Below are positions 8,902 to 50,493 of a DNA stretch of 64,000 nt, piece after piece (within the stretch, counting starts at the first letter, position 1; each line of letters begins with the position of its first letter). The stretch is from Candidatus Dormiibacterota bacterium (lineage in GTDB: Bacteria; Chloroflexota; Dormibacteria; Aeolococcales; Aeolococcaceae), in the NCBI GenBank assembly GCA_963808125.1, contig CAWEEP010000042.1:510-64509 (forward strand), given 5' to 3'. Under the pieces are notes generated by a model that worked only from the letters and a program-made list of their open reading frames with translations, ran no database searches and was not told where the DNA came from. The translations under genes were made by a program, and so were the position numbers.

Positions 8902-8971
8902 AAAGTATTATTGACTGGCAAAAATCTATTAAAGCTATATCCTACCAACAAACCCTGAAAGGTATGACTCC

Positions 8972-9856: not shown

Positions 9857-9969
9857 AAGTCCTTTCTTTTATTTCCCGACTATTAGTCGATTAGCTTTTT
9901 TGGGTTAAAGTGGGTTTTAGGTTCGTTAGGCTCATAATGTTTGAACGCGACAAACTGATTGAGGTTGGT

Positions 9970-9991
9970 TTGTTTAAACATGTTTAAACAA
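9970..9991. promoter_or_regulatory. Perfect 22-bp palindrome, candidate operator
   Basis: TTGTTTAAACATGTTTAAACAA (two tandem TGTTTAAACA palindromes) lies ~75 bp upstream of the ECF-S/pantoate kinase/coaD operon. Confidence 0.5.
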
Positions 9992-10067
9992 TTCAAAGGT
10001 AAGTTTTATCTACAAAAAGAACTCTCATCAGCGTCAACAATTAAACAACAAGGAAGCAAAAATTAAG

Positions 10068-12210: not shown

Positions 12211-12220
12211 TTTTTATGTG

Positions 12221-13154: not shown

Positions 13155-13231
13155 TGGTCACTGCTACTTTGTATTACGTTGAATGGAATCCCAAACGCTA
13201 TGCACCGAGCGGATACTCCGGCAGCATCCAT

Positions 13232-14004: not shown

Positions 14005-14365
14005 TTGAAAGGCGCCAACTGGACTGTGGCCGGCAGTTTGCAACCCAATTCCAGTTTTTGTCTCCAGCTTCAGGAAGGCGTTCATGCGTACGCGGTCTAT
14101 GCCGAGGATAAAGCGCGCAACCGTACGCAACCGGTAACCGGCACGATCGGTTTTCTTAAGTCCAGGCCCGTATTGCAACTGCGCAAACCGGCGCGGCCTC
14201 CCGAAACGGTGCGGATACCGCCGGGAAGACCCGGAGGCGATTTTCAACCCCTGTATACCATTGAATTTTCCATTCTCAATTTACCGGATAACGATATGCG
14301 GGTCATCAAACAGGCAACGGTTATCAATACCAGCACCGGACAAACTTCCGTGCAAAAGGATCTGC
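14005..14365 (+). CDS. Fragment of an unknown, possibly Ig-like beta-rich protein
   Basis: Open frame LQEGVHAYAVYAEDKARNRT...YTIEFSI. GC is visibly lower than on either side and no native start or stop is apparent. Confidence 0.4.
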
Positions 14366-15317
14366 TCGCGGCCGGTCTCCCCGTAGCCGTAAATGAAAAT
14401 GAGCGCGGAGAGCACCAGCGAGACCACGGCGGCCAGGGCGGTGTCTTTCTGCGACTGGGCCATTTCGTCCATCTCCAGCACCGGTTCCCCCGTCAGGCCG
14501 ACGTTGAGACCCGGCACCTCGGTCTGCGTTTCCTCCACCAACTGCCGCAGGCGCACCACCGCCGCGCTGTTCAGCTTCTCGTCGGCGCCTGGCAGGTCAC
14601 CAGGTAGATGCGTCCTTTGTCGAAGGTGACGTAAATCTTCTGCTCGGCTTCCTCCCCCGGGTCGAACAACGCCGTGATCCCTGGCGACGGTGGTGTGCCC
14701 GAGCGGCGCAGGCTGGCCGTGGCCTGAGTGATAATGCGTTCCAGCGCCGGCAGCACTTTGACCAGCGATTCATTTTCGGCGTTGGTCTCCTGCTTGGCCG
14801 TGCGGAACTGCGCGCAAACCATGTTGAAGAGCGACACGAGGTTCGTCGTGCGGGTAAACTGTGTGAGGAAAGGACGGAAATCCTTCAGCTTCTGGCTCAG
14901 GCCGGCCAAGTCCTCGTCGGGAACGAACAGGAGCGCCTTGGGGCCCAGCATCTTGAGGTCCCCCTTGTAGAACACGTTATGGAACACCTTCGGCTCGGCC
15001 TCGAGCTTGGCCCCCAACCGTTCCACAAACTGGCGGTTCTTCTCGGCGTTCTCGCTATCGACCACCACCACCAGGTCATCCTGCGTCGGGAACTCCTTCT
15101 TGAATCGTAGGAAGTTCTGGTGGTAGCTTCTTGTTGGCGCCCACCAAATTGTTGCGGTTCGTGTCGAATTGCAGGGTATTTGGCAGTGTAGAAGATGCAG
15201 AGGGCGAACAGCGCCAACTGCGGATAGAAGAATAGACGCCGATGCCCAAAGACCACCCGGCCAGCCAGCCAGGCATCGCGCCACCAGACTGTCTTCCCTG
15301 AGCCGCTTAATCTTCAT
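14366..15317 (-). CDS. MMPL/RND-family transporter (hopanoid HpnN-like), 5' part only, frameshifted
   Basis: LQFDTNRNNLVG, FKKEFPTQDDLVVVV, NVGLTGEPVLEMDEMAQSQKD. Truncated after the first TM of the MMPL domain. Confidence 0.75.
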
Positions 15318-23125: not shown

Positions 23126-24433
23126 TCAGTTCAATCGCACCCAGTCGCCCACCCGAGCAAGATCGGCGAAGTGCTCGTCGTCTTCGTAGCCGGGACGGAT
23201 GCGCAGCATCAAATCCTCCCCGTCCGTCAGCAACTCCTCGCCCAACTCGCTCGCCAGGTAGGCCACGATTCGCGGGTCGAGTGCTCCCAACCCATTCAGA
23301 CGAGGCACCTCAATCAGCAGGCGGAGGGCCGGAGCCAGCGAGGCCATGCGCTGATTCCAGGCCCCCACCGGCACCCGTGGCAGAGGACTTCCCAGCCTGG
23401 TTGCGCAGAGCGCTGCGAGGGCAAACACCCGCGTCGCATGCGGCTCGGGCATGCCATCCCAGAGCGCGCGCTCGTGGGCCATCCCGTCGAGCACGTCGCG
23501 GGCCCGGTCGAGGACGTCGTCCGGCGGAATCGCGACCCAGCATCGATCGCCCACGCTGCGGACCGCCCAGCCGCCGGCGCACGCGATGTCCCCAGCCTCG
23601 GGCGCCGCTTCCAGGCAACGGGCCAGTCGGGAACCGGGCGGGACAGGCGCTCCCGGCGGACATCCGGTCTCCTCATCCCATGTGCGGGTTGCTTTGAGCA
23701 CCCGACCGCCGCGCACGGCCGCCACGGGAAGGGACAGCTCGCGGAGGCCGAGGTCCAAGGTCGCGACGACCGTGCCGTCACCGCGATCGGCCGGCGCGTA
23801 GACCGCCCCTCCGAGTGTGTCGGCTGCGATCTTGCAGAAGCCGAGCCCCCAGCGCCCGCGATCGAAACGCCGGCGGGCGGTGACCACTCTCGTCTCCGCG
23901 GCGACCCCAGGCCATGCGACGTGGAAGGCATCCGTATCCGGGATCAGCGTCACGGAGCTCGCCCGGGTGTGACGCTCGGCGTTCACCGCGAGCTGAACGA
24001 GCACGAGGGCGGCGGCCGCCGGTGCGCGGACCGGGAAGGCAGGGCGGCCCTCGACGGCGACCTGCAGGCAGGTGCGCGCGGTGATCCCTGCCACCGCCAG
24101 GTCGATGACGTCGTGAGACGTTCCCACCGCGGCCACGCTCCGGCCGGCGACGAGACGGAGCGAGGACTCCAGCATGGCGATGCGCAGGCACTGAGAGCCG
24201 CCCGTGGAGTTCGCGGCCGCCCCCAAGGCAGTCAAGAGACGATCGAGGAGCGCCGTCGAGTTCGCGTCGACCGGGGTCGTCGCGACCGCGAGGCGAGTCG
24301 CCCGGACCGCGAAATGGACGGTCCCCGGACCGGCGCCCCGCCATTCTGGAGTGGCCGCGAGGAGGCAGTCGTCACGGTCGAGGAGAGCGGCCGCGAGAGG
24401 CAGGGAGCGTATCTCAGGAATCGTCAGATTCAT
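23126..24433 (-). CDS. Histidine-kinase-like ATPase (HATPase_c) protein with no clear H-box
   Basis: VQLAVNAERH (N-box-like) and WGLGFCKIAADTLGG (G2-like). Translationally coupled to the upstream regulator. Confidence 0.55.
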   Translation of the reverse strand: MNLTIPEIRSLPLAAALLDRDDCLLAATPEWRGAGPGTVHFAVRATRLAVATTPVDANSTALLDRLLTALGAAANSTGGSQCLRIAMLESSLRLVAGRSVAAVGTSHDVIDLAVAGITARTCLQVAVEGRPAFPVRAPAAAALVLVQLAVNAERHTRASSVTLIPDTDAFHVAWPGVAAETRVVTARRRFDRGRWGLGFCKIAADTLGGAVYAPADRGDGTVVATLDLGLRELSLPVAAVRGGRVLKATRTWDEETGCPPGAPVPPGSRLARCLEAAPEAGDIACAGGWAVRSVGDRCWVAIPPDDVLDRARDVLDGMAHERALWDGMPEPHATRVFALAALCATRLGSPLPRVPVGAWNQRMASLAPALRLLIEVPRLNGLGALDPRIVAYLASELGEELLTDGEDLMLRIRPGYEDDEHFADLARVGDWVRLN

Positions 24434-25104
24434 CGTGGCGACGGAGCCTCTGACCGCGTGGCATCAGGCGCCTTGACCGCCAGCCGGTACATGCGGTTCC
24501 CGTGCGACACCACGGTCGCGCTCGATCCCTGGCGGCGCAGCCAAGCACCGAAGCGGCGCACCGCGCGGGTGGCAGTGTCGGATGTGAAGGTGACGACCTC
24601 GGGTTGGCGCACGGTCAGGCGGACCGCGTCCCGATGGTGGTACTCCGCCTGGGTCGGCACGTGGATCAGCAGGCTGCCATTCACCACTCGCAGATCGGCG
24701 ACGCTGCGGTCGAGAAGCCTGTCCACCCGCTGCATGAGAGACGCGCCGCCCTCGCGCTTGTCGTGCAGCCAGGCGCGGGGATGCGACCGCTGGATCCCGC
24801 TGCGCACCTGGAAGGAGTCGGCGTTTGCGGTGTAGACAAGGACGAGGCAATCGGGAAAGTCGCGCCCGAGCACGGCGAGGACGTGGCTGCTGGCGAGGCT
24901 CTGGTCGGGTGCGATCGACAGGTCCCAGTCGATGATGGCCAGGATCGGATGCCCCGAGGGCACCCCTCTTCTCAGCGTGGCCATCGCTCCGGAGGCGGAC
25001 CGCGCGACAAGCGGGTGGAACCGCTTGCGTGCGAAGTGCTGGCGAAGTTCCTCCAGCGTCTCCGGGTCGTCCTCGAGGATCAGAACCTCGCCGTCGGCTC
25101 TCAT
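24430..25104 (-). CDS. Response regulator with an atypical C-terminal output domain
   Basis: VLILEDD, AIIDWDL, VYTA and HDK give the receiver residues. ATGA overlaps at both ends. Confidence 0.72.
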   Translation of the reverse strand: MRADGEVLILEDDPETLEELRQHFARKRFHPLVARSASGAMATLRRGVPSGHPILAIIDWDLSIAPDQSLASSHVLAVLGRDFPDCLVLVYTANADSFQVRSGIQRSHPRAWLHDKREGGASLMQRVDRLLDRSVADLRVVNGSLLIHVPTQAEYHHRDAVRLTVRQPEVVTFTSDTATRAVRRFGAWLRRQGSSATVVSHGNRMYRLAVKAPDATRSEAPSPR

Positions 25105-25700
25105 CGCTCTGAGGACACCACCGGCATCAGCGAAACCAGTCCCGTCTGCAGGTCGCGCCCCGGCCGTATCGGAACCCCGTGATGAGCGAGGACCCGGGCA
25201 GCGTTCCGGAACGTCGCGAGCGGGAGGTCGAATGGTCGAGAGTGTGCGGAGACCAGAGCCTGGAGCTCGGGGCTCCGGGCGAACCCGCCCCCTGGGAGGT
25301 CGACGCCGACCCCGGGAGCGAGTTGTAGGCCCAAGACCTCGCTGGACAGGGCCGACCTCACAAAGGCGACGAGGTCGGCGAAGCGCGGGAAGACGAGGCT
25401 CCGGGCAGGAAGGGTCGCAGGAGCCCGCCCGTACCACACAGTCAAGACGGGGCGAATCCGGAGAACCGCGGCGAGCTCCGGTGGGAGGACAGGACCGGTC
25501 CCGGCCAGCATCCAGGGCCACGGACGGCACGTCCGGGCGGCGTCGGCGGCCTCGTCGGGGCGCGCGTGCTTCACCACGACGTAGATGCAATCTAGTTGCT
25601 CATGCAGGCCGACCGCTAGATCGCCGTCGTCGGACAGCACAAGAAGGGCGCGGTCGCGATCCCGCGCCGGAGCGTCTCGAGATGGGTTGTCCATCGCCAT
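25101..25700 (-). CDS. Pseudo-receiver-like hypothetical protein
   Basis: N-terminal ALLVLSDDGDLAVGL resembles a receiver beta1/alpha1, but no phospho-acceptor Asp is evident. Confidence 0.5.
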   Translation of the reverse strand: MAMDNPSRDAPARDRDRALLVLSDDGDLAVGLHEQLDCIYVVVKHARPDEAADAARTCRPWPWMLAGTGPVLPPELAAVLRIRPVLTVWYGRAPATLPARSLVFPRFADLVAFVRSALSSEVLGLQLAPGVGVDLPGGGFARSPELQALVSAHSRPFDLPLATFRNAARVLAHHGVPIRPGRDLQTGLVSLMPVVSSER

Positions 25701-25826
25701 GCTAAGGTCCCCCGCTGATGTCCGCCAGCTCGCGGACAGCGGCTGGCCATGATAGCGAAGGCTCGTGCAAAAGGTGGTGAGGGTTGGTTACCATGCACCG
25801 CCTCAGCTCCGAAGGGAGGGACCGCA

Positions 25827-26493
25827 ATGAACCGGCGTCGGCTCTACGCGGCGGTCTTCTTTAGCGTCGTTCTCATCGCCGTCCTAGGCCTGCTCGTTGT
25901 CACCGAGATTGAGAGTGGCACTCAAACGGTGACCGTTCTCCGACTGCGCACGGCCGTTGAGCAGGGGGCTGTGTTCAGTGCCTCCGACGTCGAGGCCGTT
26001 CCTCTCCGGCTCGGCTCGGGCGATCTCAACTACGAGGCTCCAGGCGCCGTTCCAGCCGGCTCCAGATACTCGCTCTCTCTCCAACCGGGCGACCTTCTTC
26101 GGCCCGATGATCTCGAACCCGGCACTGGCCGGTGTCGAGGTCACCCTCATGCTGATCCAGCCGCCTCCCCTCCAGCCGGGGGATGCTGTGGATCTGTTCG
26201 CGGCCAGGGGTTCCAGCCAAGTCCTCATCGGTCATGCGCTCACGGTGGAGCAGGTCAGCGGGGACACGCTGACGGTTCTGGTGAGCGGCCAGGATGAGCT
26301 CGCGTGGGTCGAGATCGCCGCTTCCAACACTCCACTCCATGCGGTGCGAGCGACCGCTCAGGCACCAGTGGGGACCCCGGCACCCGATGTCGAAGCCGCT
26401 ATCTGCGACCTCGCCGGCGAGCAATGCGCCACTGTGACGACACCATCGGCGACGTCTGTGTCGCCCACACCGTCGCCGTCGCCGTCGCCGTGA
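25827..26493 (+). CDS. SAF-domain CpaB/RcpC-like pilus assembly protein (frameshift ~26120)
   Basis: N-terminal TM, then VEQGAVFSASDVEAV..LQPGDLLRPDDL (SAF) and LQPGDAVDLFA (RcpC-like). RBS GGAGGG. Confidence 0.65.
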
Positions 26494-27197
26494 GCCTCCT
26501 GATCGGCGTTTACACCACTCGGGCGGGTCAGACGTCGAGCTACTGGGCAATTTCCCTGGCCTGGAGCCTCGCCGAGCACCGCCGGGTGATCCTCGTGGAC
26601 TGTGATATGGAGGGAGGAACCACCGCCGACGTGCTCTACCTGCGCACCGACGATCGCAGCATCGCCAACTGCTTTGGGGACCGTTCTGTCCGCGGGACTG
26701 ACCTCGAGGCGCAGGCGGTCCCAGTACCCGGCCGGCCAGGGCTGCGCGTCGTTCCCGGGCTCCGGCAGAGCTTCGGCTTCGAGGTCTCAGACTGCCTCCG
26801 GCGCGTCGGGCCCGGCTTCACCGGCCTCGACGACGATGTCGTCATCGCCGACCTTGGGCACCCGTTGGCGCATCCAGAACTGCGATCTCCGCGGGCCAGC
26901 GCCGAGGCCATCTGCTCGATCTTCCACCGCACATTCGCGGTCATCCGCGACGAGCCCGCGCTTGTGGCCCGAAGTATCAATGTTCTTCGCGCGGCACACC
27001 CCGCCCACGGTGAGATCATCGTCTGCCAGCAGCGCTCGCGTGCCTTCCAGCGCAGCATCGGCGAAACCATCGCCCGCGAGCTGCCCGATCTTCCCGTTCG
27101 CGACGTCTGGCACTGGGACGAGAAGGCAGCGGCCAGGATGGGTGACAGCGGCGTCCCTATGCAGGTGGCCGGCCTCGCCGAGGACCTTCGTCTGTGA
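26490..27197 (+). CDS. CpaE/TadZ-like MinD-family protein with a degenerate Walker A
   Basis: IGVYTTRAGQTSS..AISLAW..RRVILVDCDMEGG..LRVVPG..DVVIADLG. Confidence 0.65.
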   Translation: MSLLIGVYTTRAGQTSSYWAISLAWSLAEHRRVILVDCDMEGGTTADVLYLRTDDRSIANCFGDRSVRGTDLEAQAVPVPGRPGLRVVPGLRQSFGFEVSDCLRRVGPGFTGLDDDVVIADLGHPLAHPELRSPRASAEAICSIFHRTFAVIRDEPALVARSINVLRAAHPAHGEIIVCQQRSRAFQRSIGETIARELPDLPVRDVWHWDEKAAARMGDSGVPMQVAGLAEDLRL

Positions 27198-27258
27198 CCG
27201 CAATGCCCGTCCGGGGCAACGACACGATACCGCCCAACGACACCGTCGCTGTCCGCGA

Positions 27259-28588
27259 ATGGCCCCGGATTCCCCGGAGGAGCGTGAGGTAGCCCAGGTG
27301 ATTGCCGCGCGGGTGGCGCAGCTGAGAGGCGCGGAGCCTCCGTCCGTGCTCCAAGAGGAACGGCTGGAAGGCGACGTCGACCTCGTCATCCACCGCGCCA
27401 TCGAATCGCCCCAGGCGAGTGGCCTGCCTCTGGCCGCCGTATCAGCTCTGTCGTGGGATCCCCACTACCGCGCTGTGGCGGTCCGCAACTCCATGATCAT
27501 CGCCTCCCACCTCTGGCCGGTATCTCTGCTCATTTACGGAGCGGATCTTGAGAACGTCACCTGCCTTGGGCACGACGAGTGGATGGTGTCGACGGTCGGG
27601 CACAAGACCGTGCTCCGTGGCGGCTCGCCCTTCGGCAGCGACGACGAGGTGATCGAATACTTCCGTCGCGTCGTGAGGCTTCGAGGCGTCACCGGTGATC
27701 GGACGCTCACGGACGCTATGCCCGTCGCCGAGGCGAACGTTGGATCAGTAATCCGGCTCGTCGTGGCAAAGCGGCCGGCCGTCTCGGGGCAGTCCGCCGT
27801 CAAAGCCGCCATTCGCATCCCTTCCAAGGCGAAAGTGCGCGACCTTGCGGACTACTTCCACAGTCAGATCCTGTCCCAGTCCATGGCGCAGCTCGTGGAG
27901 GCGCTGGTTCTTGGGCGGGCAAATATCCTCATCGCCGGGGGAACCGGGACCGGCAAGACCACTTTGATGCGGGTGCTCTGCGGGCTCGTGTCGCCTGCCG
28001 ATCACATCGTGGTTGTCGAGGACGGCGCCGAGCTGCACCTGGATCAGGATCGGGGCGACGGCGAACCGTGGCACGCGCTGACCTCCGCGATGTCGACGAT
28101 TCCGTCGATTCGAGCCGACGTCGAGACACGCCAGCTCACCATGTTCGACCTCGTCCGCCACTCGCTCCGTTTCCATCCTGACCGTGTGATTCTCGGCGAA
28201 GTCCCAGGCGAGGAGATGGCGGCGGTGTGCAAGGCTCTGATGACCGGCCATGACGGGTCGATGACGACCATCCACGCCGAGGACGCCGAGCTGGCCCTCG
28301 ACCAAGCGGTGCAGTACGTCATGGAGAACCGTCGCTTCACAGGCAATGAGAAGATGGCCCGCAGAATCGTGGAGCAGGCGTTCCACGTGGTCATCCATAT
28401 CGCCAACCAGAATGGCCGGCGCCGGATCACCGGGATTCTCGCCGTCGAGCGCGGGGGAATCACAAGTGGGCGTACCGGAGACGACCGTCGGCGGTTGGGA
28501 GCGCATGACCGAACTGGTCGGCAACCTCTCTAGGCTGGGCCCGCGTCTCCAGCCGCATCTCTGCAGCGAGGAGATCCCTCTGCCGTGA
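27259..28588 (+). CDS. CpaF/TadA/VirB11-family secretion ATPase (frameshift ~28465)
   Basis: NILIAGGTGTGKTT, VVEDGAEL, LRFHPDRVILGEV, TGHDGSMTTIHA. Confidence 0.9.
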
Positions 28589-29511
28589 ACGGCCTCGCTC
28601 TGCCAGGACCGTCGCCCGGCTTTCTCGTCGCCGGCGTCGTGGTCGTCATCGCCTGCGCATGCGGTGTGTGCGCCGCAATCCTCGATGTCAACCCGAGGCG
28701 CCTGACTGCCCGACGGGTTCATCGATTCGCCCTGCTCGAAAGGGAAAAGGACATCGCCGCGGGGCTGGGATGGCCATGGCAGCGTTGGATCTGTCTGCGG
28801 ATCCTGTTCATCGCGCTTGGGATCGTGGTCGCCTTGGCCACCGGCATCGATCTCCTATATGTCGTCGGTCCAGTCGCTGGGGCCGTCGGATTTCGTTTCG
28901 CCCTGGCAGGGCGGGCAGCCGATCGGCGATTGCGAATGGAGCGGGCCTTCCTTGGCCAGCTGCGCAACCTTCGAGACAGGATGGCGCTTTCGAATCAATC
29001 CCTGGACACGGCGCTCCAGGAGATGGGGCGCAGCCCGGGGCCCGACCTCGAATATGTGCTTTCTCCGCTCAGCCGTGGTGGCTCCACCATCGCGAACGTT
29101 GTCGAGATGGGGATGCACGCTCGCTCGCCGCTCGTGGAGCAGGCGGCCGGAGTACTGATCTGGTCGCGCAGTCGCAGCCTCAACTGGTTAATCGACACCA
29201 TCGACACCATCCTGATTCCGGTGGGAGAAGCACAGTTGGCGGTGCAGGAAGAGGGCATGGTCTCCCTTGCGCAGCAGCGCGCGGTGACGTTCGCGATGTC
29301 GGCGCTGCTGGCGGTCATGCTGGCAGTCCTGCTCCGTATCAGCAGTTTCCGGCAGTACTACCAATCGCCCGCGGGACAGATGGTTCTGGTCGTAGTGGCG
29401 TTGCTGTTCGCCCTGCTCGTCGGCCTGCTCGGTATCATTGCGCGAACTCGGGGGTGGACCCGCTGGGACCTCAGCGCCATGGCCGAGCAACAGGAGCGCC
29501 TCGGTGATTGA
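28585..29511 (+). CDS. TadB-like (T2SS-F) membrane platform protein
   Basis: Has the TM-cytoplasmic-TM topology, QYYQSPAGQMVL before the last TM, and follows the ATPase. Confidence 0.7.
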   Translation: MNGLALPGPSPGFLVAGVVVVIACACGVCAAILDVNPRRLTARRVHRFALLEREKDIAAGLGWPWQRWICLRILFIALGIVVALATGIDLLYVVGPVAGAVGFRFALAGRAADRRLRMERAFLGQLRNLRDRMALSNQSLDTALQEMGRSPGPDLEYVLSPLSRGGSTIANVVEMGMHARSPLVEQAAGVLIWSRSRSLNWLIDTIDTILIPVGEAQLAVQEEGMVSLAQQRAVTFAMSALLAVMLAVLLRISSFRQYYQSPAGQMVLVVVALLFALLVGLLGIIARTRGWTRWDLSAMAEQQERLGD

Positions 29512-30412
29512 CATCGGGGAGCTGCTACCGTACGCGCTAGCGGCCGTGGCGGTGGTCGGCCTGTGGGCCGCCCTGCTGTCTCGGCTTGACGTCTTCACTC
29601 CCAGCGACGTGCACGCCTGGCATCGGTTGGCCGATCTTCGAGGCTACGCGCCATCACGGGGACGGCTCCAAAGGGCTGCGGCCCGGATGCCGCTGCTCCG
29701 ACGAGTGCAGAACGAGTTGGACCTTCCGCGCCTCCTGGGCCTTGCCGGCCGAAACGAGACCGCTGCCGGTTTCCTGCTGCGCTCGGTGTTCCTTTCGCTC
29801 CTCTCATGTGGCCTGTGCCTGACTGTTCTGGTCATCGCTCTCGCCCAGACCGGCGGCTGGCCGATGCCACCTGTGGCGGCCCTTCTGCTCGCAGCGCTGG
29901 TCTTTCTGCTCCAGCTTTCCTGGCTGCGCACGAGGGCGCGTGTGCGCCGCGAGCAGGCCGAGACGGCCCTCGGCGACATGCTCATGCTGGTGGCCATCCT
30001 CACTGATGGACGCGGCCTGCAACTGGAGGATGCCGTGTGCATTCTGTCCCGGTCAACGAACCACCGCGCGCTCCAGGCGATCGTCGACGAACGGGGCTGG
30101 GCGCGTTTGGTCCCTGGTCGGCCTCCGAGCACGATCGTCCTTTATCGGCTCATCGCCGAGGCGTACCGAATCCCTCTCTTCGCCACAGTGGCGGATGCCG
30201 CTGCCAATGCCAATCTGGGATTTAGCGAACGTCAGATCTACACGCGACTGGCCGGCTCCGTGTATCAGCAGCGCCTCGCTGAGGCGCGCTTCCGCGCGTC
30301 GCGGGCCAAGATGCTGGTGACACTCCCGATCGCCGGGATGCTCATCCCTCTCATCGTGCTCATCGGGGCACCGGTCTTCGCCAGCATCACCGGAGGGCTC
30401 GGCAGTGGGTGA
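29504..30412 (+). CDS. TadC-like membrane platform protein
   Basis: LGDMLMLVAILTDGRGLQLEDA..., KMLVTLPIAGMLIPLIVLIGAP. Confidence 0.7.
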   Translation: MIDIGELLPYALAAVAVVGLWAALLSRLDVFTPSDVHAWHRLADLRGYAPSRGRLQRAAARMPLLRRVQNELDLPRLLGLAGRNETAAGFLLRSVFLSLLSCGLCLTVLVIALAQTGGWPMPPVAALLLAALVFLLQLSWLRTRARVRREQAETALGDMLMLVAILTDGRGLQLEDAVCILSRSTNHRALQAIVDERGWARLVPGRPPSTIVLYRLIAEAYRIPLFATVADAAANANLGFSERQIYTRLAGSVYQQRLAEARFRASRAKMLVTLPIAGMLIPLIVLIGAPVFASITGGLGSG

Positions 30413-32225
30413 GATGACATCGCCATCGCGCCAAGCCTTGGCGGGAGGAGCGGTGGCCTTGGTGCTCTTGGGAGCGTCCGTCGCGACGTTGGGCGTGCCC
30501 GACCTCGGGTTGGCCGGCCAGTTCCTTGGCGGCGGATACCCATCCCCGGCGTCCGCATTGGCTTCGCTCTCAATCATCTTCGACGCGATCCTTCTGGGCG
30601 CCGCCTGGTTGGCATTCAGCGGGGCGGCTCGCGCCCGCGGCGGTAAGGGGGGGGTTCCTCCCACCCTGCGGGCCCTGGCGTTCGTCGTCGCTGGGGTGAT
30701 TCTCCTGGGCATGAGCATCGCCCAGCGGACGGACACAGAGGGAGGTTTTGCTGCGGAAATGGCCAGCACCAGGTTCGGGAGGCCGAGTTTCTTGCTCGCT
30801 GATCGCGAAGGAGGCTATGCCTTCGTTGTCCTCTTGGGGGATCGGGACGACGCTGAAGAACTCGCCGTCATGATGGATCAGATGCGGGGCGGCGAACGGC
30901 GCTGCCCCGCCGTCATCTTGACGCCGCCAGTGCGGGGTCTGGCGTTCTTCGCTGACGCAACTCAGCAGTCCGACGTGGACCGCTGGTGGTCGTCTGCCGT
31001 GCCACTTGATGCGCAGCCGGTGTATCTCCTCATGCATGAAGGGTCCCTCCCCGAATGGCAGGGCGGCGTCGATGGAAGCTTCTACATCGGAGCACCGGAC
31101 CAAGGTGCCGCGGCCCGCTATGCAGGTGTCCCGGACACCCGGGTGTTCCTCTGTCACAGCCTCCTGGACTTCGCCGTCCAGGTGGCGCGTGACTTCCGCG
31201 ACACGGGGGTGTTCGACCAGGCGGCGACAGCTCGCATTCTGGGCCTCCATTCGGATCGCGCGCGCGATCAAAACCGCCTGGCGTACCCTCCCCAGGCTCT
31301 CGCCGACGCTCCGGAACAAGCCGCCTCGAGGCCAGCAACCTGGCGCCGCCAGGCGGCTCCCCGCGGCGGTGCCGCGCGGAGCGGGTTCTTCCGACCGAAG
31401 CGGCGCGGCCACCGGCCGATGTCCGACGCAGATCTGGCGCGGCAGCTAGCGGGCCGTGGTCCGACCATTGTCGTCATGGGCTCTCGTAAGGGTGGCGTGG
31501 GCAAGACCAGCTTCGCTGCGGGGATCGCCGTCGTCGCCGGTACGGTCCTGGACCAGATCGGCCACAGTGCCTGCCTCGTCGATGCCAACCTCGCCAACCC
31601 CGACGCGTGGGGTCAGATGAACCTCCCCACCGGGGCGGCGACCGTTCGGGAAGTGGTGGGAGCCCTGCTCGCTAATCGGGAACCACCGCCCCCCGTCCAC
31701 GCGGCGACCCCCGCACTCGCGTGCTATCCGGAGGTGCGCGAGCCGTCCGAGTATTCGCGCACGGAGATCCGCCGGTTCGCCGACCACCTGCGGCGGCGCC
31801 ACACCTTCATCGTGGTCGACATGTCGAACCGTCTGCCCGACCCCACGGGGGGGGCGGGAGCTGCCGCCGCCGCGTACTGGCTGGATGCTGGTGACGTCCT
31901 CGTCCTGCCGACCACTGCGTCGCGCTCGGATTTCGACGGTGTTCTTGACTACCTCGACGTGGGTGGTTTGCCTCCGACGGTCGTCCCGTACATCGTCGGC
32001 ACGTCAAAGCGCCTCCGCGACAACCCGCTCACGCTCGAGTACGTGGACGCCATCCGGTCACGGGTTGCGGCGATTGTCGAGGTACCCGACGACGCCAACG
32101 CGGTGCGGCTCGCCGGCATGTCCGGGGTGCCGGCGGAACAGCTCTCACCGAACCTCGGCGCCGCCTATCGGGCGCTGACCGAGGCGATCGCGGTGACGCC
32201 GCGCCGTGGTGGGTCACGCCGATGA
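30405..32225 (+). CDS. ParA/MinD-family ATPase with an N-terminal 3-TM extension (possibly two genes; internal ATG 30759)
   Basis: VVMGSRKGGVGKTS, LVDANLANPD, FIVVDM. Hydrophobic first ~110 aa. GGAGG precedes ATG 30759. Confidence 0.75.
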   Translation: MGEMTSPSRQALAGGAVALVLLGASVATLGVPDLGLAGQFLGGGYPSPASALASLSIIFDAILLGAAWLAFSGAARARGGKGGVPPTLRALAFVVAGVILLGMSIAQRTDTEGGFAAEMASTRFGRPSFLLADREGGYAFVVLLGDRDDAEELAVMMDQMRGGERRCPAVILTPPVRGLAFFADATQQSDVDRWWSSAVPLDAQPVYLLMHEGSLPEWQGGVDGSFYIGAPDQGAAARYAGVPDTRVFLCHSLLDFAVQVARDFRDTGVFDQAATARILGLHSDRARDQNRLAYPPQALADAPEQAASRPATWRRQAAPRGGAARSGFFRPKRRGHRPMSDADLARQLAGRGPTIVVMGSRKGGVGKTSFAAGIAVVAGTVLDQIGHSACLVDANLANPDAWGQMNLPTGAATVREVVGALLANREPPPPVHAATPALACYPEVREPSEYSRTEIRRFADHLRRRHTFIVVDMSNRLPDPTGGAGAAAAAYWLDAGDVLVLPTTASRSDFDGVLDYLDVGGLPPTVVPYIVGTSKRLRDNPLTLEYVDAIRSRVAAIVEVPDDANAVRLAGMSGVPAEQLSPNLGAAYRALTEAIAVTPRRGGSRR

Positions 32226-32252
32226 CCGGGCTCAAAGCACGGCGCTGACGTC

Positions 32253-32853
32253 ATGACGGAGCCCAGCGATCGGCCGGGGACAATCGTGCGCAATGGGCAG
32301 TATCTTCCGGTTCCACTTGGGGCTCTCCGCCCGGTGCGGCGCCGTCGCACGATCCCCCGCCCGGCACGCCTCTGGCGGTGTCGCGTCGAGATCGCAGCTG
32401 CGGTTGGCCTGATCCTGGCGGCCGCCGGTGTTCTGGTCACGGTGACCCGTCGATCCCCTCGCGGTCTATCTGAGCGGCGACGCCGTCCACGTGGACGGGG
32501 TCACCCTGTCTCAAGCCCCCGGTAATGGGGGCTTGCGCACAGGGCGCCTGTACACGGGAGCCGCCACCATGGTGCTGACCGCCGGCCCCGATAGCTCAGT
32601 CATCGCTTCCGCGGTGACGTTCGCGAAGGGAGAGGAGGTGCGCGCAGTCTGCACGCTCGATGCCTCGGCTTCTTTCGAGGTACGGGAGCGGTGCCAATTC
32701 CAGATGGGCGACACCTCCTTCAACTGCGACGACGTCTTCAGCCTGACGGCACCGGGAGAGTGGCTACGCCGATGCAGTGACGGGCAAGTTCTGAAGATTG
32801 AGGTGCCCACCGGAGCGGAACTCATCCCCATGCCCTTCCCACTCGGCCGCTGA
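32253..32853 (+). CDS. Hypothetical membrane-anchored protein with a Cys-containing extracellular domain (frameshifted)
   Basis: ORF 32253-32525 (TM) and ORF 32491-32853 (4 Cys) overlap in different frames. Confidence 0.5.
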
Positions 32854-32883
32854 CGGTTGGGCCTCGTCAGCAGGGCGACGGGC

Positions 32884-33565
32884 TCAGGCGGGGACCCCGT
32901 TGACGCTGGTAAGGTCGGCCCGCCACACCAGGCGGTCGTAGTCGACCCACCATGGGGTGCAAGTGACCAGGGTCAGTTCGTGGCCGCTCGTGGGAACCAA
33001 CTGAGTTCACGTCGCTGGGTGCCAGCTGCCAGCGCTAAGTCACTGTGTAAACGTAGGTGTCGCAACTCCGGTCCTGAATGGTAATCGTGTCCCCTGGCCC
33101 GAGTTGATCGATGTACTGGTAATCAGGCTCCCGGTGGAAGGCGATGATGACGTTCCCCGCCCCGCCCGGTGCCGGGCTGCCTGACCAATGGACCATGGAG
33201 CGGTCGTTGAGGGCGCTCCAGTCGCCATCGACCGACACACCTGCGTAGTCGTACTGGGGGAGGCCACTGAAGGCGACCAGGGCGTACGCGTCGGATGACG
33301 AGCCACCGCCGCCGCACTCGCTGATGGTCACCGGGGTCGGCGTGGCCGCAGGGGTGGCCGTCGCGGACGGGGCCCCCTCCAGAGCCTTGCTGCCGCCGTT
33401 GTTCCACGAGTTCAGCGCGCTGCTGTCGTTGTAGGCACGCGCCGCAACCTGCTGCTGGTCGAGCCACTGGTGGTAGACGCCCGTGACGATGACGGTCATC
33501 CCGGAGGCGATCAGAACCAACCCCAGGAGTAGCGCCACCAGGCGCACCCGTCCACGCCACCTCAT
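32884..33565 (-). CDS. Sortase (class D/E-like), frameshifted
   Basis: N-terminal TM and PGGAGNVIIAFHR..LGPGDTI. Downstream frame ELTLVTCTPWWVDYDRLVWRA supplies the His-Cys-Arg triad. Confidence 0.85.
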
Positions 33566-33578
33566 CGCTTCAAGCCTA

Positions 33579-35177
33579 TCAGACGGGCGGGCTCCCGGCC
33601 ACTGCCGCCATATCCGCCACCACCTCATCGAGAGTGGATTGCATGATGCCCCGGATCACCAGGCCGCGGATCTGGACTAACAACCCGTCCAGCGGGAGGT
33701 TGCGCGCCACTGCCTCGTCGATCATCTCTTCCACCCTGGGCGAGGAGCGCTGGAGGCGCTCCCGGGCCACCCGCTTCAACTCGGGCGCCATCGTGGCGAT
33801 GGGCGACGCCGGCGCCTGGACCTCGGGTTCAAAGATGCTCGGCGGAGGTGCTCCCCACCTGGCCCTCGGGGGGCCGTCCGGCGGTATCGCGGCAGACGTC
33901 GCGAAGGGATCGGTTTGGGGCTGCTGCACCTCCGCCGTCGTCCACGGGGGTGGAGTTGACCAGTCGATGCCGCCGGGAAGCGACCCTGGCGGATCCGCCA
34001 TTGCCTGCGGGTCGGTGGTCTCGGCCACCGCGGGTGGGGGAGGGACAAACTGGGCGGAGGTCTCTTCCGCTCCGTTCGGTTCGCGCCGGACCCAGACGGT
34101 TCCCCTTCGCGTCGCCGCCAGCGGATCGAGGAGGGTCGCCTCCCCCAGCTCGGGGTGGCGCTCGGTGTAGGTGGCCACTTGGCGTCCGTCGAGGATGAGC
34201 GTCACGCCCCTGCCCAGCGGTGTGTCGAGTTCCACCACATGCGATCCGGGCCGCCCGCAGAGGTCCGCGACCAGCCCGGGCCAATCCGTCCACGACAGCC
34301 GGAGATCCTCGTAGCAGGGGTTTCCGCGGAAGAGGGAAGGGGCGACATCGACGATCAGGGGGTCGAACAGGTAGGCCGCCACGGTGGCATCGGTCCAGCC
34401 GCTCATCAGGTTCAGCGCGGCCTCGCCGAACAGCTTCGCCTCCCCTTGGAAGGCGTACTGCTCGAATAGGGCGCCGTCCTTGACCAGGACCACGCCCACT
34501 GCCTCGGGCTTGCGGACGACGACGGCGCCGTGGACGATTGCCGGCGCCAGTGCCGCGATGACGACCGCCTCAGACGGGATGCCCTCGAAGATCACGGTGC
34601 CGCGGGGCAGGAGGGGAATCAGATCGTGTGGCCCAGGCGTCCAATCCGCGTATTCGTCGAGATCTGACGCCGCTTGACCGGTTACGTTCACTTCGGTGTC
34701 CTCGTGGATCTGAGGTGCCGGCTCGTCGTGGGAGTGAGCGGCGGGGGCAGGCCAGGGCTCGGGGGCCCTTCCCGTCGGCTGCGGAGTGACCGGGCTCGGC
34801 CACGGATCGGGGGAAGAATCACGGGCGGAGGGCGCGGCTGGAGCAGGCCAGGGATCGGGAGCCTTGCCGTAGGGCGGCGCGGCAGGAGAGGTCCATGCCT
34901 CGGGACCGGCAGCACCCGCGGCCAGGCCGGGGTCATTCGCGAGAGGCGTTTGCCCGGCATCCCCAACGGCCGGGGCGCTATTTTCCGGAGGCCAGGCCGG
35001 GAGGGATTCGAGCGGCTCGGGGGGCGCCCCGGGGGATTCCTGGGGGCGAAGCCACTCGCTGGGGACCGTCGGCCACCCACCCACCTCAGGATTGGGCTGA
35101 ACGCTCTCGGGATTGGGCTCCGTGTCGCCGCCGTCGCTCCGCTTGTCTGGCGCCGACCCTTCTGGGTTGTCGCTCAT
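33579..35177 (-). CDS. Proline-rich protein with two tandem globular repeats (DUF2226/DUF4388-like by inference)
   Basis: RBS AGGAGG before ATG 35177. Pro-rich N-terminus with three P[DE]PWP repeats. LPRGTVIFEG... and FRGNPCYEDL... look like two related domains. Confidence 0.6.
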   Translation of the reverse strand: MSDNPEGSAPDKRSDGGDTEPNPESVQPNPEVGGWPTVPSEWLRPQESPGAPPEPLESLPAWPPENSAPAVGDAGQTPLANDPGLAAGAAGPEAWTSPAAPPYGKAPDPWPAPAAPSARDSSPDPWPSPVTPQPTGRAPEPWPAPAAHSHDEPAPQIHEDTEVNVTGQAASDLDEYADWTPGPHDLIPLLPRGTVIFEGIPSEAVVIAALAPAIVHGAVVVRKPEAVGVVLVKDGALFEQYAFQGEAKLFGEAALNLMSGWTDATVAAYLFDPLIVDVAPSLFRGNPCYEDLRLSWTDWPGLVADLCGRPGSHVVELDTPLGRGVTLILDGRQVATYTERHPELGEATLLDPLAATRRGTVWVRREPNGAEETSAQFVPPPPAVAETTDPQAMADPPGSLPGGIDWSTPPPWTTAEVQQPQTDPFATSAAIPPDGPPRARWGAPPPSIFEPEVQAPASPIATMAPELKRVARERLQRSSPRVEEMIDEAVARNLPLDGLLVQIRGLVIRGIMQSTLDEVVADMAAVAGSPPV

Positions 35178-35331
35178 GCCTCCTATCCTAATCCCAGCCC
35201 CGCCATAACTCGGCGTTTCCGGCAATCGTATGGCGGCCTGCTTTGCACGGACCGGCGCCGGTTCATCACCGGCGCCGGCTGCGCCCTTCCCCTCTGGCCG
35301 CGCCACGTTCGTGCCGGCGCGGGTTCGGTGG

Positions 35332-35721
35332 TCAGACAGCCTCTGCCAACGGTGATGCCGTCTGGTCGATTTCGGTGCCGACCTCGTCCCCGCTCGGCCG
35401 GCGGGCCTGGAGCAGCTTGACGGTCTCCGCGACCACCTCGGTGCTGTATCGGCGAAGGCCGTCGGACCCCGAGTACTCCCGAGTCCGCAACCGCCCTTCG
35501 ATGTAAACGCGCCGCCCGCGGGTGCAGTACAGGGCGCAGACTTCCGCCAGCCTGCCGTAGGCGACGATGGCGTGATACTCCGTCTCCTCCTGGCGGTTGC
35601 CTTCGCCGTCGCGCCACTGGGAATTGGTGGCGAGGCGCAGCCGTGTCATCGGCTTGCCGCTGCTGGGCAGGCTCTCCGCGTCTTTGGTGAGGTTGCCAAT
35701 GAGGATCACCCGGTTGACCAT
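35332..35721 (-). CDS. ssb: Single-stranded DNA-binding protein, short form
   Basis: MVNRVILIGNLTKD..LATN..EETEYH..VYIEGRLRTREY..YSTEVVA. RBS GGAGG. No DDDIPF-type tail. Confidence 0.95.
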   Translation of the reverse strand: MVNRVILIGNLTKDAESLPSSGKPMTRLRLATNSQWRDGEGNRQEETEYHAIVAYGRLAEVCALYCTRGRRVYIEGRLRTREYSGSDGLRRYSTEVVAETVKLLQARRPSGDEVGTEIDQTASPLAEAV

Positions 35722-35770
35722 GTCAATGCCTCCAGTGGTGTGAGATGAGACGACTACCGGTCTCTGAGCG

Positions 35771-36273
35771 TTAGGGCAGCTCGAGGAACTGCTGAGGGTC
35801 CTCTGGGGTGCCGTTCACCCGGATCTCGAAATGTAGGTGGGGCCCCGTGGCGTCACCCGTCGCACCGACCCCGCCAATCACCTGGCCTGCCGTGACCCGC
35901 TCCCCGTCGTGACGCACACGCTCTCCAGATGCCCGTACAGGCTGCTCAGACCGTCGGCGTGGTCGATGATGATGTGAAGCCCGTAGCCGGTCGTGTCATC
36001 GATGACCTGCGCGGTACCGGCGAGCGTGGCGTGGACGGGCGTACCGGCCGCGGCGGCGAGGTCGATCCCCGAATGGAAATGCCCCCCGGGACAGTCGGGA
36101 TCCACCGGCTCAAGCGCGAACGAGGTGCAGCCGAAGGGTTGCGTGATCACTGCCCCGATGACGGGCTTGACGAATGATGTCGTGGCGGAATCCAGAACGG
36201 CAGCCCCCGCTCCGCCGAGAAGGCTGAGGCCCGCCAACAGGGCGGCGGTCAGGCCGGCGATGGCGCGCAGCAT
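35771..36273 (-). CDS. Secreted M23 peptidoglycan endopeptidase (frameshift ~35900)
   Basis: Signal peptide, [12 protein letters not shown] and downstream-frame [16 protein letters not shown]. Confidence 0.9.
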
Positions 36274-36275
36274 TC

Positions 36276-37183
36276 TCAGGTGTCCCCGGGGCGCAGCGTC
36301 AGCGAGGTACGCCGCGCCTGGCGCCCGAGCTCGCGGCTGACGGCGGAGAACGCGCCGCCCTGGCGCGCCGCTGAGGCCAGAGCCTGGGGAACCTTGAGGG
36401 CGACCCACAACGTCGCCAGCGCGTAGAGCGTGGCCGCCAGGCTCGAACCTCCGGCAAGCCCGGTGGCGGTCGCGACGCGGAGCACGGTGATCTGCGCCGC
36501 CTGCATGAAGAGGGCAACACAGAAGAGACGGGCCCAGGTCTGCGCAAGACCCCTCGTCTCCGGCAGGATGGTGGCGAGAGCGGCGAGCGGTGCGACAGCG
36601 ATGAGCACCTGGAGCACCGCCATCCGCACCACGTAGGTGAGTGCGAGGATGACCACCGCCACCACGAGGGCCAGCACAACGACGATCTTGAAGAGGTCGG
36701 CAGCAGGCTCGCCTGCTGAAGGGACGACGGGTCGAGGGGGTTGGTCCAGGGCATCGAACCGCCGCCCAGGCTCTGGGCGAAGGTGCTGAGACTGTTGTTG
36801 AGGTCGATCGTTCCCTGCATCAGAGTGAGCGACGCGTGCATCAGGAAGACGGCGAGGAGGACCCTAGGCAGCGCCGCTTTCACGTCATGCGCCGAGGTGA
36901 CGCTGCGATCCAGGGTGCTGCGGACGAAGACGGCGAGGACCACGAGCACGAGTAGCGCGTCTCCAGCCAGGCTGAAGTCGGTGTTGAAGGCGGCAAGGTG
37001 CGGGTTGCTGGTGAGGGGCAGCGCCCCGGGTCGCGACGTGTCCACCGTGGTGAACAGGAAGTCGTTCAGCAGGCCGAGGATGTCCTTCCGCCCACTGTTC
37101 ACGAACTGACTCAACAGACTGGCGATCAGCCCGCCGAGGCTGCTCAAGGGATTGAGGGACCCGACCACCACCTCCGCACGCAT
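36276..37183 (-). CDS. TrbL/VirB6-like polytopic membrane protein (frameshift ~36700)
   Basis: LPRVLLAVFL..TIDLNNSLS; YVVRMAVLQVLIAVAPLAAL..ILPETRGLAQTWARLF..ALFMQAAQ..LKVP is typical of Gram-positive TrbL-family proteins. Confidence 0.72.
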
Positions 37184-37192
37184 CGCCGGGAC

Positions 37193-37432
37193 TCAGTGCA
37201 TCCCGCTGGGGATGGTGGCAATGAGAGCGTGAGCGAGGGTTCCGGCCAGCTCGGCGCCGATGGTGCCGACGATAATCCGGCCGATCCATCGCCGCGCCTC
37301 GTATGCCGTCCGCGGGTCGACGGCGAACATCCGATAGATGAAGGCGGCGATGAGGGCGAGGGCGCCGAGACTGCCAACGACGCCCTGCGCCAGCAGCACC
37401 CAGTTATCGACGAGCGTCTTGAGCGAATCCAT
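37193..37432 (-). CDS. TrbC/VirB2-like pilin (small two-TM protein)
   Basis: 79 aa with two hydrophobic helices separated by DPRTAYEARRW. RBS AGGAGG. Directly upstream of the VirB6-like gene. Confidence 0.6.
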   Translation of the reverse strand: MDSLKTLVDNWVLLAQGVVGSLGALALIAAFIYRMFAVDPRTAYEARRWIGRIIVGTIGAELAGTLAHALIATIPSGMH

Positions 37433-37510
37433 CGGCGGGGCCTCCTGGACAACCCGAATTCATCGGTTGACCGCCCCACCGGCTCCGGCCGCCGAGCGGC
37501 CTATCGCGGA

Positions 37511-37540
37511 AGGTTATACAAACGTGTCGTCCTGTGTCAA
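37511..37540 (-). promoter_or_regulatory. Sigma70-type promoter for the pilin-VirB6-M23-ssb operon
   Basis: Minus strand reads TTGACA-N16-TATAAC, an AT-rich patch in GC-rich DNA ~80 bp upstream of the pilin gene. Confidence 0.6.
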
Positions 37541-46673: not shown

Positions 46674-46676
46674 GCC

Positions 46677-48403: not shown

Positions 48404-48415
48404 GAGCGTGCGGTC

Positions 48416-50490: not shown

Positions 50491-50493
50491 GCC

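Follow-up and report, generated by a model that had tools for sequence, protein, structure and literature searches.

A four-gene cassette coding for a VirB2-like pilin, a VirB6-like membrane protein, an M23 peptidoglycan peptidase and a single-stranded DNA-binding protein (SSB) lies within positions 23126-37540 of the 64,000-nucleotide stretch of Dormibacteria DNA analyzed here (the window), together with a divergent Tad-like motor module and a regulatory operon. The region is best explained, with a probability of about 60%, as a clade-specific side-by-side arrangement of separately inherited units, in which the cassette is a domesticated, relaxase-less miniature type IV secretion system (T4SS) and an accessory Tad-like system stands beside it. 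The cassette probably moves single-stranded DNA (ssDNA); its wall peptidase and private SSB fit the passage of ssDNA through a peptidoglycan-bearing envelope. An earlier note, made from the sequence letters, had proposed that the Tad motor and the VirB2/VirB6-like proteins work together as one domesticated DNA-exchange apparatus. Domesticated DNA handling is still a fair reading of the VirB2/VirB6/M23/SSB set because the set is chromosomal, vertically inherited, under purifying selection and without a relaxase or coupling protein nearby. The Tad motor was not retained as its engine, and cassette and Tad-like motor probably do not form a single hybrid DNA-transfer machine. Three units are distinguished below: the cassette (unit 1, 37432 down to 35332), the Tad-like module (unit 2, 25827 to 32853, with a proline-rich protein gene and a sortase gene) and the regulatory operon (unit 3).

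Conservation and distribution of the cassette

Across the class, the cassette has the character of a core gene set. A profile of its VirB6 protein matched 95 of 101 class genomes at E ≤ 1e-20 (family f1 24/26, f2 9/9, f3 22/24, f4 32/34, f5 7/7) and was single copy in nearly all. Each of these genomes is at least 85% complete, and the lineage forms one class within a larger phylum in the genome collection used. In a wider phylum sample, VirB6 matches at E ≤ 1e-30 were obtained in 13 of 151, all inside class Dormibacteria. Loci of f3, f4 and f5 keep the order pilin-VirB6-M23-SSB, as does a record labelled Chloroflexota; in that record and in Candidatus Amunia the cassette stands alone amid housekeeping genes. 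No VirB4, VirD4, relaxase or nuclease was found in the cassette flanks scanned, which were those of the window, Candidatus Amunia and the Chloroflexota-labelled record. The cassette was intact in every orthologue inspected. Unpublished genomes contribute to the class tallies (G003, G021, G026, G198, G234, G240, G246), and no conclusion hangs on them alone.

The window itself is part of contig C42 of a 2.35-Mb, 81-contig genome that is 81% complete (G000; contigs given as Cnn belong to it unless another genome is named), and near-identical DNA is present in peat metagenomes. The window clade consists of three genera, g1, g116 and g117. The unpublished G030 does not enter the class tallies.

All four cassette genes are encoded on the minus strand. 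The first (37193-37432) specifies a 79-aa VirB2-like protein with two hydrophobic helices, whose match to PF18895 (T4SS_pilin) in the window reached E 8.7e-4 and 19.8 bits against a cut-off of 26.6. PF18895 was matched by 6/6 orthologues (E 4e-6 to 0.025), two of which reach the cut-off, and 14 columns are invariant across 21 sequences from all five families. The polytopic VirB6/TrbL-like membrane protein (36288-37183) was assigned through PF19597 (TrbL_4), which matched 6/6 orthologues at 27-41 bits with a cut-off of 27; the window gene is split over two frames, one half matching model positions 8-158 and the other 158-296. The exported M23 peptidase (35775-36273, ends approximate) carries a full-length domain in orthologues, and the window open reading frame (ORF) at 35878-36408 covers profile positions 2-60 of 96 only (E 2.7e-14). 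The fourth gene (35332-35721) encodes a second, short SSB of 129 aa without the C-terminal acidic tip (Pfam SSB, E 1.8e-31). The housekeeping ssb is found in an rpsF-ssb-rpsR arrangement on contig C59 and its product ends in DDIPF, an end that the shorter extra copy in the cassette lacks. A tail-less extra SSB is the pattern of competence and plasmid SSBs, and this dedicated copy is a circumstantial sign that the cassette transports DNA. A membrane protein of 145-157 aa is encoded upstream of the pilin in f3 and f5 and had no match in G000.

Ratios of nonsynonymous to synonymous substitution (dN/dS) between genomes with the window's layout, called type A below, were 0.09-0.23 for the pilin, VirB6, SSB, TadB-like, TadC-like, sortase and kinase-like genes. 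Values were 0.11-0.17 for the pilin, 0.09-0.15 for SSB and 0.19 for the kinase-like 435-aa gene. These seven genes are under purifying selection.

Several translations of the window turn to nonsense midway, and M23 and the sortase match part of their profiles only. The frameshifts remarked on in the earlier note are real in the window letters. Alignment with G001, a genome of the same genus (85% identity over 14.4 kb), revealed uncompensated one-base indels in the SAF gene, the secretion ATPase gene (three), the junction of the three-helix and MinD-like genes, and the anchored protein, sortase, M23 and VirB6 genes. The nine coding sites are 26126, 27271, 28452, 28478, 30745, 32454, 33006, 35901 and 36704. 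Metagenome contigs at least 99% identical to the window, taken from four runs of four studies with 2-4 runs covering each site, depart from it at all nine, each time by a single base, and every covering run's contig carries the corrected base at its site. One of the four runs is possibly the source of the metagenome-assembled genome (MAG) itself, so the runs are not all independent.

At the individual sites, the extra base at 26126 in the SAF gene is omitted by two runs, and the extra base at 32454 that splits the anchored-protein gene is omitted by the three covering runs. The ATPase gene is short of one base at 27271 and at 28452 (inserted in 4/4 runs at each of the two) and at 28478 (3/4 runs); the contig of the X1 run ends at 28478 and hence cannot show an insertion there. 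The base missing at 30745 fuses the three-helix protein to the MinD-like gene, and 4/4 runs insert T behind this position. The sortase gene is cut by a stop at 33035-33037, which the metagenome contigs read through (three runs have G at 33037), and carries an extra base near 33006 that 2/2 runs omit. M23 lacks one base near 35901 (C inserted in 2/2 runs), as does VirB6 at 36704 (A inserted in 3/3 runs). Since each independent contig covering a site reads through, all nine coding frameshifts are consensus or assembly errors.

The kdpA gene, 10 kb from the locus, is likewise split near 47912, with KdpA profile positions 2-397 and 395-548 in two frames, and more one-base indels relative to G001 occur in the kdpB/kdpC region; the stretches concerned are 46674-48403 and 48070-51299. 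Consensus errors thus occur across the window and do not single out the locus. Contigs of three runs (X2-X4, depth 11-28) also show a joint within 34434-36048 that skips 1613 bases, from the proline-rich gene across SSB into M23; the shorter side of the joint is only 21 letters long, a kind of joint that often stems from other organisms or repeats.

The Tad-like module and the regulatory operon

The Tad-like module is an accessory, very divergent Tad-type motor that belongs with a complete VirB4/VirD4 operon in other genera. A profile of its TadB-like protein (E ≤ 1e-20) matched 28 of the 101 class genomes (f1 20/26, f2 0/9, f3 0/24, f4 4/34, f5 3/7), three of which hold two copies. The VirB4 of the cluster (E ≤ 1e-40) was found in 13/101 (f1 12/26, f4 1/34), and the module is present in 12 of these 13 VirB4-positive genomes. 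About 68 of the 101 genomes have the cassette without the module, and two, of genus g22, have the module without the cassette. The two operons are therefore not conserved together, an outcome that the earlier note had named as refuting its proposal.

The surroundings of the module were compared across 65 related loci that carry its ATPase at 62-93% identity, using a tblastn battery at E ≤ 1e-6. The ATPase, TadB and TadC were matched in all 65, the CpaE-like and MinD-like proteins in 62 each, SAF in 57 and the anchored protein in 55. Matches were fewer for the proline-rich protein (42), VirD4 (31), VirB4 (27), a 520-aa VirB6-like protein (26), the regulatory triad (15), the sortase (14), SSB (13), the TrbL_4 VirB6 (10) and the 79-aa pilin (9). 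Three layouts were seen. Type A (~15 loci, including the window) combines triad and module with the convergent pilin, VirB6, M23, SSB, proline-rich and sortase genes. Type B (~27 loci) has, in this order, a small pilin, the 520-aa VirB6-like protein, VirB4, a hydrolase, the genes from SAF to the anchored protein, VirD4 and the proline-rich protein; the unpublished G003 supplies one of three VirB4 examples and the M23 example of these clusters. In type C (~15 loci) the module lies amid metabolic genes, sometimes with VirD4 and the proline-rich gene. An orthologous VirB4 (53-56% identity) was found in 4/5 type C genomes, about 110 kb from the module where both share a contig. In other genera the module is flanked by VirB4, VirD4 and wall hydrolases, and the clusters scanned have ordinary chromosomal flanks. 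Complete copies of the Tad-like cluster in those genera carry VirB4 and VirD4, which also goes against the hybrid by the refuting conditions of the earlier note.

Genomes with the type B or type C layout carry the cassette at a separate locus. The type A VirB6 profile gave a strong single match elsewhere in 5/5 such genomes tested, and cassette and module are ~130 to 900 kb apart where one contig holds both (G035, G036 and G038; ~900 kb in G035). The module is read as independent of the cassette because of this distance and because of their different frequencies (28/101 and 95/101). The pilin and VirB6 of type B and type C loci match each other; type A pilin and VirB6 compared with those of type B/C gave nothing significant by blastp (E 0.017 or worse). 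Orthology of the type A and type B/C proteins was accordingly rejected, and they were treated as separate sets. G017 has an intermediate layout, with pilin, VirB6, M23 and SSB by cbpA-odhA and only ~5 kb past its proline-rich gene. In the genus of G017 the cassette SSB is followed by a 482-aa fusion of a receiver domain and a ParA/MinD ATPase (L021:250-1695), a TadZ-like architecture; no counterpart follows the SSB of the window.

Two diverged module copies occur in G007 (on its own contigs C42 and C12), G106 and G239, the last with two VirB4 genes as well. In G237 and G239, divergent copies of module and VirB4 remain linked at a distance of 13-20 kb. This multiplicity and the patchy distribution hint that the Tad-like/VirB4 cluster is or was mobile.

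The genes of 23126-37540 were identified by Pfam and NCBIfam scans of 20 candidate ORFs, 12 of which, counting alternative frames, had no match. Of the gene content listed in the earlier note, T2SSE, SSB, M23 and the sortase were recovered directly and ParA and T4SS_pilin weakly, and VirB6, the pilin and TadB/TadC were recovered through orthologues or remote methods. SAF, the CpaE-like protein and the signalling triad drew weak matches only (SAF 4/9, CbiA 1/9, Response_reg 1/6 and HATPase_c-like leads).

The module runs on the plus strand. It starts with a membrane-anchored SAF-domain protein of the CpaB/RcpC type (25827-26493, the end taken from the post-indel frame), for which weak SAF matches (E 0.001-0.016) lie under the cut-off. 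A CpaE/TadZ-like protein follows (26478-27197, start approximate) with a degenerate P-loop; it lacks KGGxGK(S/T), the motif expected of such a P-loop. The CpaF/TadA-like secretion ATPase (27200-28588, start approximate) matched Pfam T2SSE at E 1.8e-28 through window ORF 26602-28533. Its best solved relative is Caulobacter CpaF (8rkd, 9e24; E 1.7e-25, compared with 8.5e-19 for VirB11), and it scored 131 bits against the NCBIfam TadA-type model TIGR03819, far under the cut-off of 373.

Two putative platform proteins are encoded next, neither of which reaches the Pfam T2SSF cut-off. The TadB-like protein (28585-29511), assigned a very divergent GspF/PilC fold by fold search and Atlas, matched T2SSF in 0/9 orthologues and aligned with the genome's canonical T2SSF proteins by hhalign at a probability of 12%. 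The top three of 48,161 chains for its model (predicted local distance difference test score, pLDDT, 75) by VIA-align were SpoIIIAB (Z 11.3), PilC (9.3) and EpsF (8.6); the matched chains are cytoplasmic domains, and the Z values lie under the tool's caution line for helical bundles. A Foldseek search of the PDB with this model returned no match at E ≤ 0.001, and in Atlas 25 of the 30 nearest clusters carried T2SSF (score 0.96). The TadC-like protein (29438-30412) is T2SSF-like, with an hhalign probability of 81% (E 1.2e-5, 184 columns) against four canonical T2SSF proteins of the same genome and weak Pfam T2SSF matches in 2/9 orthologues. No similarity between the TadB-like and TadC-like proteins was detected by hhalign (E 0.39). 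A complex prediction of both with the pilin as partner, run without controls, scored 0.00 against a mark of 0.32, a value that speaks neither for nor against an association.

A small protein with ~3 membrane helices comes next (30405-30760, end approximate), in a frame of its own apart from the next gene in G001 and G017. The MinD/ParA-type ATPase that follows (30750-32225, start approximate) has an N-terminal domain of no known assignment and an intact deviant Walker A motif; a weak ParA match at the P-loop was obtained in 9/9 orthologues and, as ParA/MinD, in window ORF 30405-32225 (E 0.0055). The last gene of the row encodes a membrane-anchored protein of ~200 aa (32253-32853) that belongs to no known family (Pfam match in 0/9 orthologues) and is in one frame in G001 and G017. 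The module contains no gene for a Flp-type pilin, a pseudopilin or a prepilin peptidase.

The two remaining genes of unit 2 are on the minus strand. The proline-rich protein (33579-35306) is built of a conserved pair of alpha/beta domains and a helical domain at the C terminus, and its gene adjoins VirD4 in the type B and C loci of other genera. A by-eye resemblance of its domains to PATAN/DUF4388 types was dropped, with Pfam matches in 0/9 orthologues. Its model (pLDDT 77) found nothing in the PDB by Foldseek at E ≤ 0.001, and the best VIA-align Z of 6.2 is within noise. The class E-like sortase (32920-33628, end approximate) has a full domain in 5/5 orthologues at E ~1e-17; window ORF 33035-33628 covers profile positions 16-80 of 125 at E 1.4e-6. 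A six-frame regular-expression scan of the window for LPXTG or LAXTG with a hydrophobic tail gave two matches, both outside plausible coding frames.

Unit 3, from 25700 down to 23126 on the minus strand, is a clade-specific, translationally coupled three-gene regulatory operon, and its genes are conserved together in the 15 of 65 loci that have the triad. The first gene (25101-25700) encodes a 199-aa protein of no known family (Pfam match in 0/7 orthologues) that is receiver-like by eye; the stop codon of this gene overlaps the second gene's start. The second product (24430-25104) resembles a receiver domain, with a weak Response_reg match in 1/6 orthologues (E 0.0065); its ORF is listed to 25590, and the conserved part is the last ~225 aa (tblastn residues 161-386 in the more distant G018). 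The last gene (23126-24433) encodes a 435-aa protein with a possible GHKL/histidine-kinase-like ATPase domain at residues ~20-245. Pfam matches were obtained in 0/7 of its orthologues; its Atlas feature score was 0.86, and its structural neighbours were all HATPase_c proteins but below the tool's bar. The kinase-like and receiver-like nature of the triad is a lead only.

Two further features of the window lie outside these units. The G+C content of 0.37-0.46 in the first 12 kb contrasts with 0.65-0.73 from 16 kb onward. Products of the low-GC part (1-13000) include MarR, NfeD, an HtrA-like protease with PDZ, an SPFH protein, an ECF S-component, a GHMP kinase and a cytidylyltransferase; a foreign island or a chimeric join in the MAG contig may account for this part. 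At 39022-43317 a 1431-aa fusion joins lipoyl, E3-binding and acyltransferase (E2) domains with 2-oxoglutarate dehydrogenase E1, and lpdA comes after it.

Candidate motor and competing explanations

On the favoured reading, the three-genus clade kept the Tad-type motor and lost the cluster VirB4 and VirD4. No cluster-type VirB4 orthologue was found in G000, G001, G031-G034 or six further g116/g117 genomes, nor in any of the eight g1, g116 and g117 genomes of the class sample, and whole-genome searches of four type A genomes returned VirB4 paralogues only (26-30% identity). A VirD4 orthologue was not found in G031-G034 or G001; two genomes had no match and two had matches at 22-23% identity. The picture in G000 was the same. 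The Pfam scan of the window ORFs revealed neither VirB4 nor VirD4, and general Pfam scans of the window ORFs and cassette flanks revealed no relaxase family, MOB-specific profiles not having been run.

The earlier note saw no Flp pilin, prepilin peptidase, VirB4, VirD4 or relaxase in the stretch, and the searches agree; these families were seen in G000 on other contigs only. VirB4-like paralogues are encoded on C25, C76 and C73, the end of C62 has a distant VirD4-like gene, and the one relaxase candidate seen is a Replic_Relax protein on C76. The C76 region (1900-14500, locus L094) resembles an integrative and conjugative element (ICE) or plasmid and encodes a CHAP hydrolase, VirB4, Replic_Relax and ParB_N proteins, as well as a membrane protein of 500 aa whose similarity to the cassette VirB6 is weak (27% identity, E 0.001). 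Flp_Fap matches occur on C25 and C79 only, the sole Peptidase_A24 match is on C55, and a whole-genome T2SSF scan recovered only two canonical TadB/TadC pairs, on C61 and C75.

The motor of the cassette is most likely a class-wide VirB4-like ATPase encoded elsewhere, as gene linkage and distribution suggest. This ATPase (C25:18142-20418 in G000; Pfam P-loop_TraG, DUF87 and AAA_10) stands alone beside ribonucleotide reductase, unlinked from the cassette. Best hits at 31-37% identity were obtained in 13/15 other genomes tested. In 6/7 f2 genomes the best hit precedes the cassette by ~1.1-2.4 kb and shares its strand, the exception being G027 (different contigs); in G023 a 201-aa ORF and a Dtd-like ORF lie in between. 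Two g22 genomes have neither the cassette nor a C25-type ATPase, their only matches being the cluster VirB4, and this co-loss counts as one event. Four f2 genomes (G019, G022, G024 and G025) have another VirB4-like gene, with 28-33% identity to the query, on the contig of the first and 11-20 kb away from it.

In the proposed mechanism, of which we infer the DNA substrate, the ATPase-cassette partnership and each step, the VirB4-like ATPase would power the passage of ssDNA through the VirB6-like pore and the VirB2-like protein would form a short conduit or pore collar. M23 may open the wall locally and the dedicated SSB may coat the strand in the cytoplasm, in either the import or the export direction. 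ComEC (PF03772) was detected in 44 of 61 sampled class genomes and was not found in the window clade (0/5: G000, which is 81% complete, G001, G205, G214 and G217), in f2 (0/5) or in genus g22. The cassette occurs in genomes with and without ComEC; the ComEC pattern therefore does not settle a role in DNA uptake.

Several observations weigh against separately inherited units and a DNA-moving cassette driven from C25. The link of ATPase and cassette rests on adjacency in one family and one co-loss event; in one f4 genome 17 kb separate them, and f3 and f5 examples have them on different contigs. A C25-type ATPase is present in three genomes without the cassette (G202, G220 and G241); these assemblies are fragmented, and the missing cassette may therefore be a gap. 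Cassette genes are also missing in places: G035 has pilin, VirB6 and M23 without SSB, G036 and G039 have pilin, VirB6 and SSB without M23, and M23 is missing in Candidatus Amunia as well. Neither M23 nor SSB is therefore obligatory. In the window clade, cassette and module are consistently 6-9 kb apart (5/7 sampled genomes, the other two being split over contigs), and the two might cooperate there. The Patescibacteria T4SS has no proven DNA role either, according to PMC12102498.

The cassette may alternatively be a domesticated T4SS remnant that does not move DNA and serves protein export, contact-dependent interaction or envelope work, its SSB being a passenger or acting in replication or repair. 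Such a role is unlikely, though it draws on real observations: the G035 genome has a single SSB in all and none in its cassette, the scanned flanks hold no relaxase, coupling protein or nuclease, and co-option for other functions is suggested by the authors for the relaxase-less Patescibacteria system, the closest bacterial parallel (PMC12102498). It is opposed by the position of SSB, directly after M23 or VirB6 in f1, f3, f4, f5 and the Chloroflexota-labelled record, and by the tail-less form of this extra copy beside an ordinary housekeeping ssb.

A hybrid limited to the window clade, in which the Tad-like motor came to drive the neighbouring VirB2/VirB6 cassette as one chromosomal ssDNA-exchange apparatus after the loss of VirB4 and VirD4, is rather improbable. 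The module does adjoin VirB2/VirB6-type genes of two different origins, its own pilin and 520-aa VirB6-like gene in type B and the cassette in type A, and these two sets show no detectable similarity to each other. It is moreover intact and under purifying selection without VirB4 or VirD4, has no Flp-type pilin gene of its own, and keeps the 6-9 kb adjacency in 5/7 clade genomes and ~15 loci. However, most cassettes occur without a module and the g22 modules without a cassette, the intermediate G017 layout shows that adjacency can arise by simple loss of intervening genes, and G000 has a VirB4-like ATPase of the type linked to the cassette in f2. We know of no Tad or type IV pilus platform that assembles a VirB2-type subunit, which also counts against the hybrid. 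That the convergent operon is a decaying, non-working ICE remnant, as the window frameshifts in VirB6, M23 and sortase, the local lack of VirB4, VirD4 and relaxase and the separate ICE-like cluster on C76 might suggest, is close to refuted: the frameshifts are absent from independent near-identical contigs and also affect kdpA outside the locus, the cassette is single-copy across 95/101 class genomes, every inspected orthologue is intact, and dN/dS is 0.09-0.23.

Relation to known systems

A full-text literature search, most subscription journals lying outside its reach, returned no paper on these gene sets in Dormibacteria. In the Tad/Flp (type IVc) systems, such as Caulobacter Cpa, the module finds its likeness in the CpaF-like ATPase, the two putative GspF-fold platform proteins and the CpaE/TadZ-like and SAF proteins in their usual order. 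The module differs in having no Flp prepilin, pseudopilin or prepilin peptidase, in platform proteins under the Pfam T2SSF threshold, in its extra MinD-like, three-helix and anchored proteins, and in being embedded in a VirB4/VirD4 cluster in other genera. Tad-type motor and T4SS genes associate repeatedly in the class. To our knowledge the type IV pilus and type IV secretion machine families have never been seen sharing parts; the clade hybrid, if true, would be a genuine chimera, with an ATPase and platform from the type IV pilus family powering a conduit from the type IV secretion family. Gene neighbourhood alone can point to a hybrid machine that phyletic patterns do not support.

The cassette resembles the conjugative T4SS of monoderms (MPF_FATA) in its VirB6-like protein and wall hydrolase and in the AAA_10/TraG-P-loop VirB4 elsewhere in the genome (PMC12102498). 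Unlike these systems, it has no adjoining VirB4, coupling protein or relaxase and is not mobile. It has a VirB2-like pilin, in contrast to Gram-positive T4SS classes, described without one in the same paper.

The T4SS of Patescibacteria, the candidate phyla radiation (CPR), is closer. These bacteria are a sister lineage to Chloroflexota/Dormibacterota, and their system is chromosomal, mostly relaxase-less and built from PF18895 VirB2-like pilins with VirB6 and VirB4 homologues (Microb Genom 2025, PMC12102498). It differs from the cassette in its pilin arrays and in mostly having no VirB1-type hydrolase, according to that paper. Set against it, the cassette is pared down to pilin, VirB6, M23 and SSB, has a dedicated SSB, and its VirB4-like gene is usually unlinked. 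Dormibacteria are mentioned once in PMC12102498, in a remark on phylogeny, and their T4SS is not treated there. If the cassette and an unlinked ATPase do move DNA, they would form a vertically inherited, relaxase-less transfer device made from conjugation parts in Dormibacteria, and a simpler relative of the enigmatic, essential Patescibacteria T4SS. Four cassette genes, including a dedicated SSB, and one ATPase would then be a minimal set for T4SS passage of DNA through a monoderm-type envelope, and would open a way to study gene flow among uncultured bacteria that abound in peat and soil.

The Ced and Ted systems of Crenarchaeota match the cassette and its candidate ATPase in composition, having a minimal two-helix VirB2-like protein, a VirB6-like pore and a VirB4/HerA-like ATPase (Nat Commun 2023, PMC9905601). 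They too are chromosomal, domesticated and relaxase-less, and a few other genes may stand between their ATPase gene and those for pilin and pore (same source). Ced, the model invoked in the earlier note, has a VirB4-like ATPase of its own, CedB (PMC9905601). The likeness claimed here is one of gene set. The cassette differs from Ced/Ted in including an SSB and in its bacterial host, which has peptidoglycan, hence the M23 peptidase, and DNA import has been shown for Ced (PMC9905601) and is a guess for the cassette. If they move DNA, the cassette and its unlinked VirB4-like ATPase would be a bacterial counterpart of archaeal Ced/Ted.

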